Part shown: one piece after another, positions 1 through 6,783 of the stretch
How positions within the stretch are numbered: position 1 is the first letter of the stretch
Layout: each line of letters opens with the position of its first letter
Assembly (NCBI GenBank): GCA_049515895.1
Contig: JBEKTQ010000011.1
Location: forward strand, 1-64,000
DNA: 64,000 bases
Source: Candidatus Bathyarchaeia archaeon
GTDB lineage: Archaea; Thermoproteota; Bathyarchaeia; Bathyarchaeales; Bathycorpusculaceae
Reading direction: 5' to 3'
Notes under the pieces: generated by a model
Told to the model about the DNA's origin: nothing
Seen by the model: only the letters and a program-made list of their open reading frames with translations
Databases searched by the model: none
Made by a program: the position numbers and the translations under genes

Positions 1-1130
1 AGCAGTGCAAAAACACGATCAGCTGCAAGTTGTGCTCGGAGTCTTAAGAGGTCGCTTCGTGTTTCTCGCACAGTTTTGTTGGTTATTGGCACAATATCGT
101 TTTCCATGTATTGACTTAGAAGACCCATCAGATCGTCAATCATTTGCAATTTTACTGTTTCGTCTTTTTTCTTGGGTTGCATTCTCTTGTTTAGTTCATT
201 GAGTTCACAATAATCGTTCTTCAGTAGTTTTTCCTTGTCTAGCCGAGTTCCATAGTGCTCCAAAGAATCACAAATCTGACAGACGCCGTCGTCAATCTTC
301 TTCAGCTCAGAATTTGCAGAATTGAGTTTTGATCTTTCTTTGAAAAGGCCACGAAATATGTTCACGTCGTTCTTGTCCTTTATTTGATCGTACTTTTTCT
401 TTCTTTCGTTATACTCGGAGACTATTTGTTTCTCGTCGCTTAGAAGCTTGATTTTTTCTCTAGTTTTATTCTTCAACTCCAATTGCAATAATTTTTTTGA
501 AAGCTCTTTATGTTCGGCTTTTTGGCTTTCAATTTTCTCCTCACAGTCTTTAATTTCTTTAAGTTCGGCTCTTTCTTTTTTCTTGAAATTACGAAATTCC
601 TCAATATCTCGTAGGCGTTCGGTAATAGAGCTTTGAAGTGTACCCACTCCTTTCTCTAGTTCGTTGAAGTATTTAGAAAGTTTTCCAATGCTTGCGTTTA
701 CGACTTTCTTAGGATCATCTTCTGTAAGAAAAACAACGTCAAATTTTCTATTTATTGTATCTAAATCTACTGGTTTCGAATTTAACCAACATCTTGCATT
801 TTGCCCTTTTGTTCTCTCAATCTTTAACTCTATATGTTCTGGCTTTTCAGAACTAATTCTGAAGCGATATTCAAGAGTAGAGTTTTGGTTTAGGTTCTGA
901 AGTTTTTGTTTCAGTGCGGGTTTTGTTTCCAAATCCTTTTCGTGGTCAAGGTAACCTACTGCCAATGCTAAACAGTTAAGTAGGGTAGTTTTTCCTGAGC
1001 CATTTCGCCCCTCAATTTCGATAAGATTTCCATCTATTTTGTTTTCAACATTTGCTGGAGGAAAGGAAAAAGGCTTGTCTCCTTCTCTATGATAGCCGCG
1101 TTCTGAGTAGTTCATATTAAACTCAAACAA
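1..1130 (-). CDS. SMC/Rad50/SbcC-like coiled-coil ABC ATPase, N-terminal 376 aa (3' end beyond window; absent from ORF track)
   Basis: Hand translation from TTG at 1130 is open to the window edge. N-terminal Walker A IEIEGRNGSGKTTLLNCLALA, then a long K/E-rich coiled coil and a CQIC (CxxC) motif at about aa 284-287. Confidence 0.85.
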   Translation of the reverse strand, partial: MFEFNMNYSERGYHREGDKPFSFPPANVENKIDGNLIEIEGRNGSGKTTLLNCLALAVGYLDHEKDLETKPALKQKLQNLNQNSTLEYRFRISSEKPEHIELKIERTKGQNARCWLNSKPVDLDTINRKFDVVFLTEDDPKKVVNASIGKLSKYFNELEKGVGTLQSSITERLRDIEEFRNFKKKERAELKEIKDCEEKIESQKAEHKELSKKLLQLELKNKTREKIKLLSDEKQIVSEYNERKKKYDQIKDKNDVNIFRGLFKERSKLNSANSELKKIDDGVCQICDSLEHYGTRLDKEKLLKNDYCELNELNKRMQPKKKDETVKLQMIDDLMGLLSQYMENDIVPITNKTVRETRSDLLRLRAQLAADRVFAL

Positions 1131-1265
1131 TCATTCATTCTCCAGCAACAATTCCATCTTTTGGTCGGTCGTGAGTTCGTCATCCCATACTGCTTCAAGC
1201 AATTTCAGCTCTTTTTCTGAAACCAATTTTTTCAGGAGTTCCTCGGCATATAGTTTTGATTTCAG
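1131..1265 (-). CDS. Unannotated 44-aa acidic helical protein (MKSKLYAEELLKKLVSEKELKLLEAVWDDELTTDQKMELLLENE)
   Basis: Exactly fills the herA-SMC gap. The putative CTG start overlaps the herA TGA (CTGA) after a GGGGTG SD-like motif, and its TGA abuts the SMC TTG. The start codon is non-canonical. Confidence 0.6.
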   Translation of the reverse strand: MKSKLYAEELLKKLVSEKELKLLEAVWDDELTTDQKMELLLENE

Positions 1266-2836
1266 GTTTTCACCCCCATTAGAGAAATAGGAAACTTCAC
1301 AAATCGGGCCTGCGGCAGAGCAACGCTGGATATCGCGGCAAAACCATTCTCCAACGAAGACAATTCAATTGAAAAATCTTTTAGGCCAAACTTGCTTCCA
1401 ACATTTCCAAGCGACCTAAAAAAGATCCGCGTATTAACAATAGATTTCAGTCCGTTTGGCAGGTCCTCTGGATTTTGCGAAGCAAATATGACTCCTATTC
1501 TTTCTGATCTACCCATTCTAGCAATCGCGCTTAACTCTTCTAGCGCTTGCACCGAGGCACTCGAGCCATAAAATTGATGAACCTCATCAATCACTATTAA
1601 AACGGGCAAGTCTGAATATTGCCCTAAAACAGCTTTGGACTCATAAATCCTTGACAAAAGATGTCGGAGCAAAACTGCTCCAAATATAGTTGTGTCCTTG
1701 TTTGAAAGATCTATGACGGAGAGTTTGCTTGGAACCATGATGTTGTCTTCTTTGATTGCCAAGCAATCGGCCTCTTGATTGTCGAAATAATCTCTTGCAC
1801 TGTCTAGAGATCTTAGTATAGCTCCACAAGTACCCGAATGTATCGGAATCTCACTTTCTTCCCCAGCTTGGGAAATTGTAGGGAAGACGTACTGGTTTTC
1901 TTTTGTCGCCCTGTTTGTAAACCAGGCTACAAAATTGCGGAAAGTAATCTCTTCGTTGGTTTTTTCCTTCCAATATCTAAATATGGATGGTAAAGCTTCT
2001 GCCGCACGATCAGTCACGTTTTGAAGAACACCGAGAAGAGAATTTGGCTCTAGATCGCGTGTCCTAAGTGTAATTGATCTCACTTTGTCTCGATTAACGC
2101 CTTCCTTGTGTTTCTGCTTTGAAGCAGGAATGTAAATGTTGAATTCGCTGTCAGTCTCTTTTGTAAGATTGAGAGATGCCCACTCTTCTTGACTTTGTTT
2201 CTTCAGATTTTCTTTTTTAATAACTGTCGGCTGATCCATTGTTAACAAGTCAATGCCTTTCACGTTCACAGCCAAGACTGCTCCTTTTTCATGTTCAATA
2301 AACCTTTCAATCATGTACTTCATTGCTACTGTTTTTCCCGATCCAGTCTGACCGCAAATCATTGTTTGTAGATACAACGAATCAAAAGGAATTCTGACGT
2401 AAATAAGTCGTCCCTTGTCATCCTTAAGTACTGCATTCTGGGTTAGGAAACTTGTGGCAAGGAAAACCCCATAGCCCTCCTTTGAAGTAAATATTTCATC
2501 GATTTCCTCCTGTGTTGTGCGTCTGGCCTTTTCATTTGGCTTAATATGGCTAAACATGCCGTCTGATCGCAATGGGAATTGACGCAGTTCTTTTGCCAGG
2601 AGTATGTTCTTGCATTCCTGATCTTGTTTCAATAAGGGAAGTTCCGTATCAACAATAAGAGGCGATGGCTCAAAAAGCGACTTGGAGTACGATTTTTCCA
2701 CAGATAATATATGTTTCACGTTGGTTTCATCAACAATAGTCAAATACGAACCAACTGGCAAAATCGCATCTATCCCTTTTGACGACACTAGTTTAACGAA
2801 TTCATTTTCTGTTCCAGATACAATCCACATTTTCAT
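1262..2836 (-). CDS. herA: HerA/FtsK-superfamily ATPase (HerA-like DNA translocase)
   Basis: Walker A GQTGSGKT, Walker B IVIDEVH, HerA-type ARMGRSERIGVIFASQ motif and an N-terminal barrel-like region. ATGA overlap with the upstream nuclease gene. Confidence 0.88.
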   Translation of the reverse strand: MKMWIVSGTENEFVKLVSSKGIDAILPVGSYLTIVDETNVKHILSVEKSYSKSLFEPSPLIVDTELPLLKQDQECKNILLAKELRQFPLRSDGMFSHIKPNEKARRTTQEEIDEIFTSKEGYGVFLATSFLTQNAVLKDDKGRLIYVRIPFDSLYLQTMICGQTGSGKTVAMKYMIERFIEHEKGAVLAVNVKGIDLLTMDQPTVIKKENLKKQSQEEWASLNLTKETDSEFNIYIPASKQKHKEGVNRDKVRSITLRTRDLEPNSLLGVLQNVTDRAAEALPSIFRYWKEKTNEEITFRNFVAWFTNRATKENQYVFPTISQAGEESEIPIHSGTCGAILRSLDSARDYFDNQEADCLAIKEDNIMVPSKLSVIDLSNKDTTIFGAVLLRHLLSRIYESKAVLGQYSDLPVLIVIDEVHQFYGSSASVQALEELSAIARMGRSERIGVIFASQNPEDLPNGLKSIVNTRIFFRSLGNVGSKFGLKDFSIELSSLENGFAAISSVALPQARFVKFPISLMGVKT

Positions 2837-3834
2837 CCAAACCTGATTTGATTTATTGTTGGCCTAAATCCAAGTCTATTTAATAAAACAGGTATGTTGA
2901 GAATTCTTATACCCTCGCGGGCGTATTTCTCGGCAATTGCTATGGGACGAACTTGGGGATTTGAGCGGTCTCCTTGTACTAAATAAAAATATGCTAAGAG
3001 GCTCATCAAGGAAGGCATTACGGAATAGTACTTTTCGTAAGTTTCAGGATGCATTTCGAGTCTCTCAGGGAAACCATAAAGTGCTTTCATATAGGTGAAT
3101 ACTTTTGAATGTCTACTTACGAGTTCTTCAGTGTATCTAAAAAAGGGAGATCTACTTCCTGAGTTTAGTCTGCAAGCGGCCCAATGAAAATCGCTGTTAT
3201 ATTCTTCTGAGAGTCTCTTGTTAGCGGCAATAACTAGTTTGCTGTCAGAATTCTTTACAAAGTAAAGTGGTATGCAGCCTTTTTCTCGAAGTTCTTGGTC
3301 CATTTTTTCGATGTAGCCTGATACGTTCCCGCCAAGCAAAGGTCCGTCTATTAGGATGATTGAATGGGGTTCAACGCTAGCAAGTATTGACCCAGTTTTA
3401 GCATTTGTTAGTATAAGGTTGCGCTCTTCAGCGGTGTTTTCGGCGTAGTGTATGTCCTCACTCGCTGAGTTTTTGAATTTTTTCATTCCCGTCAAAAAGT
3501 AGGGCGAAACAGACAAGTTGAAACAATATTCGTTTTCGATTTTGATTGTTGAGGAGCTGCAAAACAAGAGATCCCCCTCCAATGCTCTGTAATCTTGAAC
3601 GCTTTCGTCGTACGCGAAAATGTTCCACTCCTTCATCAGCTCGTTGCATTCAGGCTTAATCTCGTGAGTTTCTTCAAAACTCTCTAAGCAACTTACTGTT
3701 GAACTAAAATTCGATGAGAGATCGGGAATTTGCGAAGAGAGTTCTGATGGAATAAATGATACAAATTTTGTAGCTTTTTTGCTGATATTTTCCAGCCTTA
3801 TTTTGATTCTACTCAAGTCGAGGCTACTTTTCAC
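2833..3834 (-). CDS. nurA: NurA-like nuclease (RNase H-like fold)
   Basis: NurA-type motifs FAYDES, IILIDGPL, FVKNS and C-terminal PIAIAEKYAR; lies immediately upstream of herA. Confidence 0.78.
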   Translation of the reverse strand: MKSSLDLSRIKIRLENISKKATKFVSFIPSELSSQIPDLSSNFSSTVSCLESFEETHEIKPECNELMKEWNIFAYDESVQDYRALEGDLLFCSSSTIKIENEYCFNLSVSPYFLTGMKKFKNSASEDIHYAENTAEERNLILTNAKTGSILASVEPHSIILIDGPLLGGNVSGYIEKMDQELREKGCIPLYFVKNSDSKLVIAANKRLSEEYNSDFHWAACRLNSGSRSPFFRYTEELVSRHSKVFTYMKALYGFPERLEMHPETYEKYYSVMPSLMSLLAYFYLVQGDRSNPQVRPIAIAEKYAREGIRILNIPVLLNRLGFRPTINQIRFG

Positions 3835-3915
3835 GTGTTTTGTTTCCTCTACTCGTTATCTCTGTGGATGAGACTTCTATGAATTGCCTCGTCGAGAAGT
3901 GTACATTATTAATAT

Positions 3916-4830
3916 TTAATGCTTGCTCATTGTAAATACATCTTGAAAATTGAAAGTCTGGTTATCATTTGAATCTTGGTATCGATGGGGTATAAAATTT
4001 GATATTAAAAGTTCCTTCCCTCTTGCAGGCTTATTGTTACCCGCATTATTCATGCCATATTGCAATTCCCAAGGATGTAAATGTACGTCTTCTGCGAAAT
4101 CAAATAAACTTCGAATTGCTTCCGAATCATCATAAGTGATTAGCCATTTATGTTTACACTGTTTAACATTATTTGCAAATTCAACGTGATCAAAAGATTT
4201 GTTTAAATCGCCGTTTATTCCATAAAGAGCTTTTCTTTTTGTCTTCAGATAAGGCGGATCCAGAAATACAAAAACCCTTTTTCCTTCTTTTGCAAGCATT
4301 TCTTCATAGCTTTGATTAGTTATCTCAACATCTTGTAGAAGAGCTGATATCGGTCTGAGTTTTTCCATGTTTGATACAGTGAATCTCTTTTTAAAGGACT
4401 CATCGGAATAGCCCCCAGAATCTACTGTTCCTGAATAAGTTATCCGATTAAGCACATAGAATCTTACTGCTCGGTGAAATTCGTCTCTATCTTTTAGTGC
4501 GCAAGCAAGTTCTTCGTAGAGTATTCTGCCATTTCCGTAAGAGTTTCTTATTTTACTTATTTCAATTAACATTTCGTCAACATTTTTCTTCAAGGTGTCC
4601 CAGAAGCAAAACAAGTCGTAGTTAAGGTCGTTGATTTTGAATTTGGCTTCGGGTCTAATTTGTTTTAGATAAATAAATACTGAACCGCCCCCAACAAAGG
4701 GTTCTCGATATTCGGAAAAATCGAGGGTCATGAAAGGGTGAATTTTATTAAGAGCCTTTGATTTTCCTCCAGGATACCGTAATGGGCTTGTAATTTTTTT
4801 TGGATCACGGGCTCTCATAGTATCACTCAC
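3916..4830 (-). CDS. D12-class N6-adenine DNA methyltransferase (Dam-like)
   Basis: SPLRYPGGKS, EPFVGGGSV (motif I), FLDPPY (motif IV), KWLITYD and ELLISNF. Confidence 0.93.
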   Translation of the reverse strand: MSDTMRARDPKKITSPLRYPGGKSKALNKIHPFMTLDFSEYREPFVGGGSVFIYLKQIRPEAKFKINDLNYDLFCFWDTLKKNVDEMLIEISKIRNSYGNGRILYEELACALKDRDEFHRAVRFYVLNRITYSGTVDSGGYSDESFKKRFTVSNMEKLRPISALLQDVEITNQSYEEMLAKEGKRVFVFLDPPYLKTKRKALYGINGDLNKSFDHVEFANNVKQCKHKWLITYDDSEAIRSLFDFAEDVHLHPWELQYGMNNAGNNKPARGKELLISNFIPHRYQDSNDNQTFNFQDVFTMSKH

Positions 4831-4907
4831 AATTTAATAAAAAGAACTTGACTTAAATTCTTTGATTTCCGTCATTGGAAAAAAATATACTTTTCTTTCT
4901 TTAAAGG

Positions 4908-6783
4908 TTAAACATCTTTTTCTATTCTTGATTTGAAGAATCTTTCTGAATCTTTGTCCATGAAATAAATATAGCATCCTTTCATGCCTCGCGATAGCAA
5001 TACTCGATAGGTGTTTTTTACTAGTGCTGTGAAGTTGTCTTTGGATCTTTTTACTACGTTATCTGCGGAGTTTTCAGCGTGACCTTTCCATGTTTGTTCG
5101 TCAAAGCTGTAAACAAGATCGTTTCCAAATATCACTCCGGCGTAGTCGAATTCGAATCCTTGTGCTGTGTATACGCAGCCTATCTGGTTTATTCCGCTCG
5201 GGTCATGTGCCCATAGATTTGATTTTGGGATTCCTTGGGCTAATATTCTTGCTTCGGGTTTGGCATTCCATGGTCTGTGATAATTACCGATGACTACATC
5301 ATCTTTGAGAGCGCCCTCAGAATCGGGGTTTGACCATGGCCAACAGAAGCCAGCTGTAATTCTTCCGGTATAACCTGTGCTGACTTTGGTTCTTACCGCG
5401 ATTTCAAGATCTTCGGGGCTGCCAAATACCTTCAAATCGAACTCTTCATGCTGATCCCAAATAATGTTGGCAGTCCGTTTGATTCCTAACGTATTGTTCA
5501 CCCAGTTTACAAAGGCATCTGAGCCATTGCAACGGAACTGGGCTTCTAACTCGTATTCAAAAACTTTGCAATTGTTTTTTGCGGCGTATTCCTTGATATA
5601 ATTAACTGAGCCGATTTCTCCCGGTCGTACTACCTGGTCATCATCAATGAAGAACGCAGAAACTTTAGAGGCATTTAACAATTCTTCAATTTGTGGAACA
5701 TCTGATCTCTCAGCTTTGGGAGTGAATCTATTGAAGGATGTTTCTCTGAGCCGGTGGGCTTCATCAGCGATTAGAACATCTATGGCGTTGTTTTCTGCAT
5801 CGGTGTAGCTGTTAAAATACTTGAATTGGGCTGCTCCTCGTGATTTTATTATCCTTCTCAGAGTCTCAGTGAAGGCACGTGATCCAGTTGCATATTGGGC
5901 GTTGTACCCTTTCAATAGCAAGTCAGCCATGAGGTTGATGGCGATGACTGACTTACCTGTTCCTGGGCCTCCTTTGATTATGATGACGGTTCTTTGCTTG
6001 TCGTGAAACCCAGTTTTAGCGCAGGAAAAAACTTTGTCGTAAACAACCTGTTGCTCATCCAACAGGATGTATTCCGTCATCCCCCTGATCACGTTGCCCA
6101 CGTGATCCATCAGCTTCTTGCTGGGTCTATACTTGCTCACTTCAATTCGTTTGAGTACATCTACTCCGTTGCCCATCTCAAGCTTCGTAGTCAAATACCT
6201 TGATAACTTCGGGACATCATCGGCGGTGAAAAGAGGGGAACTGGAAAGAGCATCCCAAAATTTCTCTGAGAACAAAATGTCTTCCGAATAGAGGCTATAG
6301 TTGTGCAGGTAGGCGCAGGCGTTGAGGATGACGGGGTTGGGTTCCTCGTAAAAAGCGGTGTGAGTATCTTTCAAATATCGTTTGTATTGTCTTACCTGAA
6401 CGGAGGGATGCAAAAGTTCCCTTCTGCCACCTACCCAGGTGATAACTTCATTTTTTCCAGGTGCATCTTCGCAGTGGTCCCCACTGTTTCAACTCAATGA
6501 TGACAGCGTTATCTTTGGCATTGGAATCTCGCCCACAAATTAAACAATCCAGCCTCTTAGACGTCATAGGTAATTGATATTCGAGCATTATCCCCTGATC
6601 GGTTAGTTTTGCGTGCTCAAAAACCATTGAAACTGCCCGCAATGAGTTTCTCCACGAATTCAACTCGCTATGAGAGGGATAATGTCTAAAGTAACCAAAG
6701 AAGGCAAGTCTAAGTTTCTCGGCTATTTGGTTCTGAACGGTGTCTTCGAGAAATTGCTGTGAAGTTCCCGCGAACAACCTCAA
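4908..6783 (-). pseudogene. DUF2075 / Schlafen group-3-like nuclease-helicase, split by a +1 frameshift
   Basis: The N-part (6448-6783) has a PD-(D/E)xK-like RLDCLI...IIELKQW segment. The C-part (4908-6413) has Walker A GGPGTGKS, DEAH and YTAQGFEFDY. Removing one G from the G4 run at 6479-6482 gives one 624-aa ORF. It may be a sequencing error. Confidence 0.8.

Follow-up and report, generated by a model that had tools for sequence, protein, structure and literature searches.

A conserved NurA–HerA cassette with an SMC-like ATPase and a winged-helix protein, a candidate defence module of archaea and bacteria

What are nurA and herA genes doing beside a DNA methyltransferase gene and an SMC-type ATPase gene at the very edge of an archaeal contig? 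The window analysed here comprises 64,000 nucleotides at the start of contig JBEKTQ010000011.1 (C11) of a Candidatus Bathyarchaeia archaeon (assembly GCA_049515895.1; 3.18 Mb in 53 contigs). Its positions 1–4830 hold five co-oriented open reading frames (ORFs), all on the minus strand, for a methyltransferase, a NurA-fold protein, HerA, a 44-codon ORF and an SMC-like ATPase. An initial annotation had proposed from these an undescribed defence system of adenine methyltransferase, NurA, HerA, tiny protein and short Rad50-like ATPase. We find a five-gene cassette that occupies the first 3.8 kb of the window and the first 1.9 kb of a second contig, C33, and on balance we favour the view that it is an undescribed module against foreign DNA, pairing an SMC–kleisin-like sensor with a HerA–NurA degrader. 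The observed basis is its gene content, the folds, the conservation of gene order, a patchy distribution across both domains and a defence-island context.

Gene content and predicted folds of the cassette

The ATPase gene runs off the window. Its ORF (1130..3, open at the contig start; 1..1130, minus strand) encodes the N-terminal 376 residues, with a Walker A motif and a long coiled coil. C33 shares an exact 122-nt overlap with window positions 1–122, on the opposite strand and in no other contig of the genome, and the ATPase frame runs on through it to give a protein of 672 aa with its signature motif and Walker B near the C terminus (C33, L003:1–1011). The joined protein aligns end to end with a 675-aa protein of homologous locus L020, and a contig from run X2 reaches 2063 nt beyond window position 1. 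The ATPase that had been called short is thus one cut by the contig end. Likewise, the four tightly joined genes of the initial annotation are real, but the cassette is larger: a gene for a 308-aa tandem winged-helix protein (C33, L003:1017–1943), 6 bases away here, always stands after the ATPase gene. As had been claimed, the junctions can be read directly in the sequence. The stop of nurA (2833..3834, minus strand, 333 aa) overlaps the start of herA (1262..2836, minus strand, 524 aa) in ATGA, herA and the small ORF (1131..1265, minus strand) meet in CTGA, and the TGA of the small ORF immediately precedes the TTG of the ATPase gene.

This layout is widely conserved. A pattern scan with NurA1, the NurA-fold protein of the window, over one genome per species yielded 42 loci in archaea and bacteria, the latter from Chloroflexota, Bacillota, Bacteroidota, Ignavibacteriota, Cloacimonadota and other phyla. 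Profile searches of the ORFs at each locus recovered the order NurA, HerA, SMC-like ATPase, 308-aa protein in 30 of the 42; in ten others the contig runs out within or shortly behind an earlier gene, and two are degenerate (L042, L060). The HerA gene follows NurA in 41 of the 42, the remaining locus stopping at a contig edge. Its recurrence at 42 independent loci puts this layout beyond chance.

NurA1 is a putative nuclease of divergent sequence. Against the Pfam NurA model (PF09376) it scores 18.7 bits (1.3e-3), under the cut-off of 21, and 17.9 bits in the search of the whole genome; some of its homologues have a precomputed PF09376 match. The AlphaFold2 model (pLDDT 85.3) is clearer. Its top Foldseek matches are NurA chains (7f6d_G 1.1e-7, 2ygk_A 5.6e-7, 1zup_A 6.7e-7, 9x1m_G 1.8e-5), with Endonuclease V and PIWI domains below them in the table, so that the protein is predicted to have the RNase H-like NurA fold. 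Five residues (D76, D163, D215, H217, E260) never vary across 19 sequences, which suggests an active nuclease. Read from the model itself, D76 lies on strand 71–84 and D163 on strand 158–163.

HerA1, the divergent HerA-type hexameric ATPase or translocase encoded next, is a HerA by sequence, with two Pfam models of the PF01935/PF05872 family above their cut-offs: HerA_C (1.7e-13, 50.5 bits against 22) and DUF87 (1e-8, 36 bits against 23.2). Its translation contains a GSGKT P-loop and a Walker B of hydrophobic residues followed by DE. The PADLOC HerA model labelled 'Type III coevolved' matches over residues 21–515 (7.4e-19), and the PDB sequence matches are HerA helicases only, including the defence HerA entries 8wiv, 8xau and 8ziq. 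HerA and NurA both appear among the 'Type III coevolved' accessory genes in Shah et al. (PMC6546367).

The third large protein is an SMC-like ABC ATPase. AAA_23 is the only Pfam family for which it exceeds the cut-off (5.7e-7, 30.8 bits; cut-off 27), SMC_N remaining under its own; an SMC profile found P-loop and coiled-coil matches only among PDB sequences, and PADLOC 2.0 gave partial P-loop matches only (LmuB, mad3, mad8, PtuA, DndD, PbeC). We considered and rejected its identity as a Rad50. A CxxC motif is present (CQIC at 284–287), but it is conserved in none of 29 aligned homologues over 600 aa; because the zinc hook is not conserved, the ATPase is not a Rad50. With the NCBIfam Rad50 model the score is 20.9 bits, where the cut-off is 700, and family scans found no metallophosphatase (Mre11-type phosphoesterase) among the cassette genes.

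The 308-aa protein matches no Pfam or PADLOC model, and its best ESM Atlas score, 0.84, is below the meaningful level. Its structure is predicted with confidence (pLDDT 91.5) as a tandem winged helix, and its best Foldseek matches, all weak, are chains of MukEF and MukBEF (best 9gm7_D, E 6.7e-3, probability 0.54, template-modelling (TM) score 0.15), making it a weak candidate for a kleisin-like partner. A contact between ATPase and 308-aa protein was predicted for the L020 pair (score 0.57, where the highest of 3 controls gave 0.00), with runs agreeing in at least 72% of contacts and a partner pLDDT of at least 77. Of 80 solved complexes 58 attain the contact mark, as do 2 of 110 mismatched pairs; among those that attain it with a score no higher than 0.60 are only 7 of the 80 solved complexes, but both of the mismatches. 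The prediction lends weak support to an SMC–winged-helix complex. The family is rare yet diverse. Among 1.84 billion representatives at 50% identity it has 452, 410 and 326 members at E ≤1e-3, 1e-10 and 1e-30, that is, 410 clusters at 50% identity at the middle threshold, and the 150 members listed are 227–313 aa long, mostly about 290–300.

Between herA and the ATPase gene, an acidic helical microprotein is encoded. All 36 loci tested carry an ORF of 41–63 aa in this gap and 35 of these align with the window peptide; in L026 the conserved peptide lies in a different frame from the ORF picked by the script. The tiny gene of the initial annotation is therefore real and conserved, but its start in the window is CTG (1263–1265), not a canonical codon. 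The four closest homologues and most others have ATG, and the first canonical start in the window ORF is a TTG that would yield 31 aa. Contigs of three runs cover the CTG (X1 record 5, X2 record 10, X3 record 13) with 0 other letters each, which rules out an artefact of assembly. Either translation begins at an unusual codon or by coupling, or the microprotein gene is silenced in this copy. In the window, the microprotein and ATPase frames are in phase with a TGA between them, and a fusion through selenocysteine or read-through was considered and dropped, since other loci have different frames or an overlap. Run X1, which may be the source sample, also contains variant contigs (records 2, 4 and 7) that differ by ~7–10% across stretches of herA and of the ATPase gene (window 1–3000); the peat sample therefore harbours a related strain, or a further allele of the cassette, as well.

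Distribution and relation to the repair genes of the genome

Could the cassette simply be the organism's break-repair operon, or a variant of it? The initial annotation had held that it is not, and had asked after separate canonical repair genes. These are present, split between two contigs: mre11 (401 aa) and rad50 (695 aa, with a CPLC hook at residue 360) on C21, and nurA (359 aa) and herA (530 aa) on C9. The C9 NurA is found at full length in 15 of 24 genomes of the same genus at 69–84% identity and, at 35–50%, in 13 of 16 from other genera of the order; because identity drops with kinship, the pair is vertically inherited. NurA1 and HerA1 had been called divergent, and indeed neither has BLAST-level similarity to any other NurA or HerA set of the genome (E above 0.01).

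The distribution of the cassette is of another kind. NurA1 occurs in 4 of the same 24 genomes, at 66, 58, 40 and 37% identity, and in none of the 16 genomes of the other genera of the order. Of 1801 scored candidates, 239 are relatives at E ≤1e-3; the 120 listed are 38–100% identical, with metagenome-assembled genomes of Jordarchaeia, Heimdallarchaeia, Hodarchaeales and Micrarchaeia among their names (46–63%). A HerA tree of 38 rows places a Jordarchaeum record nearest the window (76% identity) and requires 7 switches between archaea and bacteria, of which strongly supported branches force at least 4. The vertical phylogeny that would have pointed to a housekeeping role is not seen; the cassette is horizontally mobile between archaea and bacteria. 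In the same tree, the HerA sequences of L045 (a Methanococcoides record) and L048 (a Peribacteria record) are nearly identical, with end branches of 0.013 and 0.006, so that either the gene was transferred very recently or one of the two records is wrongly binned.

These data bear on a repair rival, in which the cassette would be an accessory machine for double-strand-break repair or recombination, an alternative end-resection complex with the SMC-like ATPase acting as Rad50 and the winged-helix and tiny proteins replacing Mre11. NurA and HerA are repair proteins by origin, the structures closest to the NurA1 model are those of repair NurAs, and the bacterial HerA–NurA pairs in the PDB come from repair studies (title of 7f6d). 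A second repair-like set also adjoins. Set against this are the patchiness within one genus, whose genomes carry differing sequence versions, the inter-domain transfer in the HerA tree, the restriction, reverse-transcriptase and PD-Lambda-5 neighbours described below, the missing Mre11-type phosphoesterase and conserved zinc hook, and the full vertical repair set that the genome retains. We regard an accessory repair function as improbable.

The adjoining set deserves description, because the initial annotation had taken an mre11 just downstream as a sign of a housekeeping operon. An mre11-like gene is indeed present on C33, but as a member of a second complete and equally accessory set of overlapping genes (C33, L003:3512–9334), encoding an Mre11-like metallophosphatase of 361 aa, an SbcC/Rad50-like protein of 753 aa, NurA2 of 337 aa and HerA2 of 489 aa. 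Between the two lies a gene for a 302-aa protein (C33, L003:1922–2830) whose start overlaps the end of the 308-aa gene; the second set begins after a 0.7-kb gap past it, about 2.5 kb from the cassette. The 302-aa protein has a sub-threshold match to a PARP-type zinc finger (20.8 bits; cut-off 39.3), and its gene follows the cassette in the nearest two loci only, L021 and L023; matches of its profile (Y302) upstream in these two loci are coiled-coil noise and were disregarded.

NurA2 is above the Pfam cut-off (32.3 bits), and NurA2 and HerA2 are ~30% identical to the housekeeping pair; in 40 related genomes NurA2 has no match above 36%, its matches falling on housekeeping genes. The SbcC-like protein has no CxxC and carries two central hydrophobic 19-mers at the hook position, which suggests a membrane hairpin; the feature is shared by all 120 listed homologues (43–75% identical, some from Parvarchaeota and [Eubacterium] cellulosolvens). 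The second set thus looks like another mobile, repair-derived module. Just after it, L003 9973–10725 encodes a 250-aa protein that matches the PADLOC candidate PDC-S19 (1.2e-6), a match that adds to the defence character of the island. Elsewhere in the genome, on contig C16 (70257–73761, minus strand), a gene for a 679-aa SMC-like ATPase is followed by genes for 275 and 213 aa and has the look of a further module of an SMC protein with partners.

A second alternative would place the cassette in the service of an integrated mobile element, in DNA pumping, segregation or competitor exclusion, with the methyltransferase as the element's anti-restriction methylase. HerA/FtsK ATPases and SMC-like pairs are reported on mobile elements (PMC10853773), the distribution is itself mobile, and the GC content lies slightly below that of the surroundings. 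The DNA had been described as AT-rich, and GC is lower (0.389–0.395 at positions 1–6000, against 0.40–0.50 in the rest of the window and 0.44 for the whole contig), but the difference is modest. Against such an element, tblastn turned up no match among 72,556 records of plasmids and 50,697 of phages, a single locus was found in 2.9 million viral contigs, and the island borders carry no tRNA. Family scans of 6 window genes and 10 C33 ORFs detected no integrase, relaxase or replication protein. No such family is among the 25 commonest of 163 flanking Pfam families, a count that does not cover the other 138 and makes no exclusion. We judge service to a mobile element very unlikely.

The methyltransferase and the defence-island setting

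Does the methyltransferase belong to the cassette? The window gene (3916..4830, minus strand) encodes a D12-class (alpha) DNA amino-methyltransferase of 304 aa with FxGxG and DPPY motifs (Pfam MethyltransfD12 1.5e-36; PADLOC MTase_II 1.1e-109). The D12 class of the initial annotation stands, but the word adenine is insecure. The closest solved relative is M.CbeI (7m6b; E 2.9e-92, residues 15–280), which presumably pairs with an ordinary restriction enzyme in C. bescii. The depositors describe M.CbeI as an alpha-class N4-cytosine methyltransferase (PMC8616854), and the same paper reports that transformation of C. bescii with DNA from E. coli requires it. With such a nearest relative, the modified base, N6-methyladenine (m6A) or N4-methylcytosine (m4C), is not deducible from sequence. 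No restriction-endonuclease model matched any gene of the window cluster, which as called consists of the methyltransferase, a DUF2075 helicase and the cassette, in keeping with the earlier observation that no Type II enzyme is recognisable; no cognate enzyme stands beside the methyltransferase, whose flanking gaps are 78 and 82 bp. The protein also matches PD-Lambda-5_B (3.6e-35), and the PADLOC scan found no PD-Lambda-5_A component in the window.

Across homologous loci, the cassette often has a methyltransferase at its side, but as an exchangeable and optional companion. Our survey took in the 23 loci in which the cassette is complete and flanked on either side by 2 kb or more. A D12 methyltransferase lies within 200 bp in 10 of them and within 3.1 kb in four more; L026 has a beta-class enzyme only, at 1.2 kb. 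Methyltransferase genes are thus often near, as the initial annotation had it, but 8 of the 23 loci have no D12 or N6_N4 methyltransferase within 3.5 kb. With the gene absent in a third of loci, methylation cannot be an obligatory part of the system.

It follows that the core cassette might be methylation-independent, the window methyltransferase being an island neighbour, solitary or a remnant of another restriction–modification pair. Apart from the loci that lack one, three of those eight (L044, L050, L057) have a methyl-directed type IV restriction enzyme directly downstream instead (E ≤1e-218), the methyltransferases found are of two classes and on either side and strand, and the D12 enzyme goes with PD-Lambda-5_A in L020, L035 and L058 and stands beside an MzaA-like gene in L025. 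The role of the characterised relative M.CbeI in transformation points the same way. What counts against independence is that a single subfamily, the window-type (M.CbeI-like) enzymes, 47–60% identical, is found no more than 74 bp away from the cassette in 9 of the 42 loci, in different phyla, and that in the five of those nine loci tested the gene on the far side of the methyltransferase has no PADLOC match, so leaves no recognised partner there. Such adjacency would be far above chance for a gene present a few times per genome. When methyltransferases linked to PD-Lambda-5_A or MzaA are removed and a beta-class enzyme 4 bp from the L058 cassette is included, 10 of the 23 loci still have, within 200 bp, a methyltransferase left unexplained by any other recognised system. 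We consider methylation independence a serious contender, if one held at somewhat under even odds.

The remaining neighbours speak for a defence setting, and the proposed linkage of homologous cassettes to methyltransferases and defence islands is borne out. Within 5 kb of 22 complete cassettes we collected 162 ORFs of at least 150 aa, of which 135 were scanned (27 dropped, 17 + 10). MethyltransfD12 is found in 13 of these ORFs and N6_N4_Mtase in 5, followed by SMC_N, ResIII, AAA_21 and DEAD (4–5 each) and by DUF3427, PLDc_2 and AAA_15 (3 each); HNH_2 is present. In addition to the type IV enzymes, a UG5 reverse transcriptase of the DRT group and an AbiLi/AriA-like ATPase adjoin in L030, and further neighbours include an HNH protein (L043), a GajB-like helicase (L026), a type I methyltransferase (L027) and a type III-like helicase (L028). 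In L020, L035 and L058 the PD-Lambda-5 genes adjoin the cassette as a separate neighbouring system.

In the window itself, a Schlafen-group-3 (SLFN-g3)/DUF2075 helicase gene (4908–6783, minus strand; Pfam 1.6e-87) is split into ORFs of 111 and 501 aa. One piece corresponds to the N-terminal and the other to the C-terminal part of the PADLOC candidate PDC-S41; in L021 the cassette adjoins a fragment 86% identical to this helicase. Immediately upstream of the methyltransferase gene there probably stands, then, a single-gene defence candidate that has been broken.

Comparison with known systems and proposed function

Which described system, if any, does the cassette resemble? PADLOC 2.0 has no match for NurA1 or the 308-aa protein and no named PADLOC 2.0 system fits the whole, so that the claim of an undescribed system holds in this comparison. 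The NurA–HerA–SMC–winged-helix cassette is not described in the full-text literature searched, a search that did not include Krishnan et al. 2020 (ABC ATPases) and An et al. 2025 (Tdp). HerA/FtsK 'capture' systems are described without NurA, as far as the accessible portions of PMC10853773 and PMC12839542 go.

The nearest parallels are partial. In common with the archaeal HerA–Mre11–Rad50–NurA end-resection operon the cassette has the NurA fold, the HerA family, overlapping nurA and herA and a coiled-coil ABC ATPase, but it lacks Mre11, a conserved zinc hook and BLAST-level likeness to the genome's own repair proteins, and its inheritance is patchy. With SIR2-HerA and DUF4297-HerA it shares a HerA-family hexameric ATPase coupled to an effector in defence; here, however, the effector is NurA, three more genes are conserved, and the PADLOC HerA models for those two systems extend over no more of HerA1 than residues ~350–475.

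Lamassu had been offered as a model for the layout, and effector genes with a small subunit and an SMC-like ATPase do resemble it, LmuB being the best PADLOC match of the ATPase (1e-9). The match is not full-length, covering only residues 10–111 (the P-loop; profile 11–120 of 1007); there is no LmuA or LmuC match, and where Lamassu has a single effector domain, the cassette would have a motor nuclease made of two proteins. The cassette recalls Wadjet and MukBEF in its long-coiled-coil SMC-like ATPase, in the ~300-aa winged-helix protein that comes next, with its weak structural likeness to MukEF and MukBEF chains and its weakly supported contact with the ATPase, and in its defence-island setting. 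The cassette proteins, however, have no JetA, JetB or JetD match above thresholds (the single Jet match is JetC1, 7.1e-3, on the coiled-coil part of the ATPase), and no Toprim nuclease (JetD) or KITE subunit (MukE/JetB). Moreover, the ATPase is ~700 aa against ~1100–1500 and the effector is a HerA–NurA pair. For MADS, the matches are at P-loop level only (mad3 1.9e-8 and mad8 1.3e-6 for the ATPase, mad8 1.1e-12 for HerA1), and the eight mad genes are not present.

TdpA is said to be HerA-like, and phosphorothioate modification reportedly halts its motor on self DNA. We know of no counterpart in Tdp for the microprotein, the SMC-like ATPase or the winged-helix protein. The NurA1 model also matches 8wfd_G, chain G of the TdpAB entry (E 6.2e-5, TM score 0.41), which occupies the chain position of NurA in the HerA–NurA entries 7f6d and 9x1m, and the NurA/HerA pair of the cassette, like TdpAB, is often linked to a DNA-modification gene. 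Unlike in TdpABC, that gene is an optional methyltransferase and not one for phosphorothioation, a statement made with no search aimed at tdpC or dnd; and the sequence search with HerA1 against the PDB did not return TdpA at E ≤0.01. PMC12914056 cites tdp as a third phosphorothioate restriction–modification system.

Taken together, we propose that a dimer of the SMC-like ATPase with its winged-helix, kleisin-like partner would recognise invading DNA by its ends or topology. This sensor would recruit or license a HerA hexamer with a NurA dimer, which would thread the invading DNA and degrade it processively. Where a methyltransferase is attached, methylation of the host DNA at m6A or m4C might limit self-attack, as in restriction–modification.

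Several points weigh against this proposal. The defence role is inferred from context and folds only. NurA1 stays under the Pfam cut-off (18.7 against 21 bits), and its profile retrieved no NurA among PDB sequences, only a chance match at E 0.81. The kleisin assignment is weak, with 0 Foldseek matches at E ≤0.001 for the 308-aa model, and the SMC–308-aa score lies in a range where passes are mostly wrong unless the contact is likely beforehand. The microprotein of the window has no canonical start, so this copy of the cassette may be impaired. Some copies are decaying (L022, L059, L060) and others have split genes (L021, L023, L031), as would be expected of an accessory gene, though also of one that can be dispensed with. 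To these are added the loci free of a methyltransferase, those with a methyl-directed enzyme in its place, and the D12 enzymes that pair with PD-Lambda-5_A or MzaA-like genes.

A more specific version of the defence proposal would make the cassette a restriction-like class of immunity common to archaea and bacteria, in which an SMC–kleisin sensor with a ~45-aa adaptor directly loads HerA–NurA and an exchangeable m4C or m6A methyltransferase provides the self-mark. We put this forward tentatively and think it rather unlikely as a whole; if true, both halves of the archaeal break-repair machinery would have been rebuilt as an immune machine. The conserved ~45-aa protein is of a kind likely to be overlooked by gene callers, and because cultivated isolates carry bacterial copies, such as those of Neobacillus piezotolerans (L027) and Mucilaginibacter straminoryzae (L035), the cassette is open to experiment. 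If confirmed, the defence module would combine the SMC-type DNA recognition of Wadjet and Lamassu with the HerA motor–effector coupling of SIR2-HerA and TdpAB, and would provide a clear case of double-strand-break repair parts reused in defence and exchanged between archaea (Asgard and Bathyarchaeia lineages among them) and bacteria.

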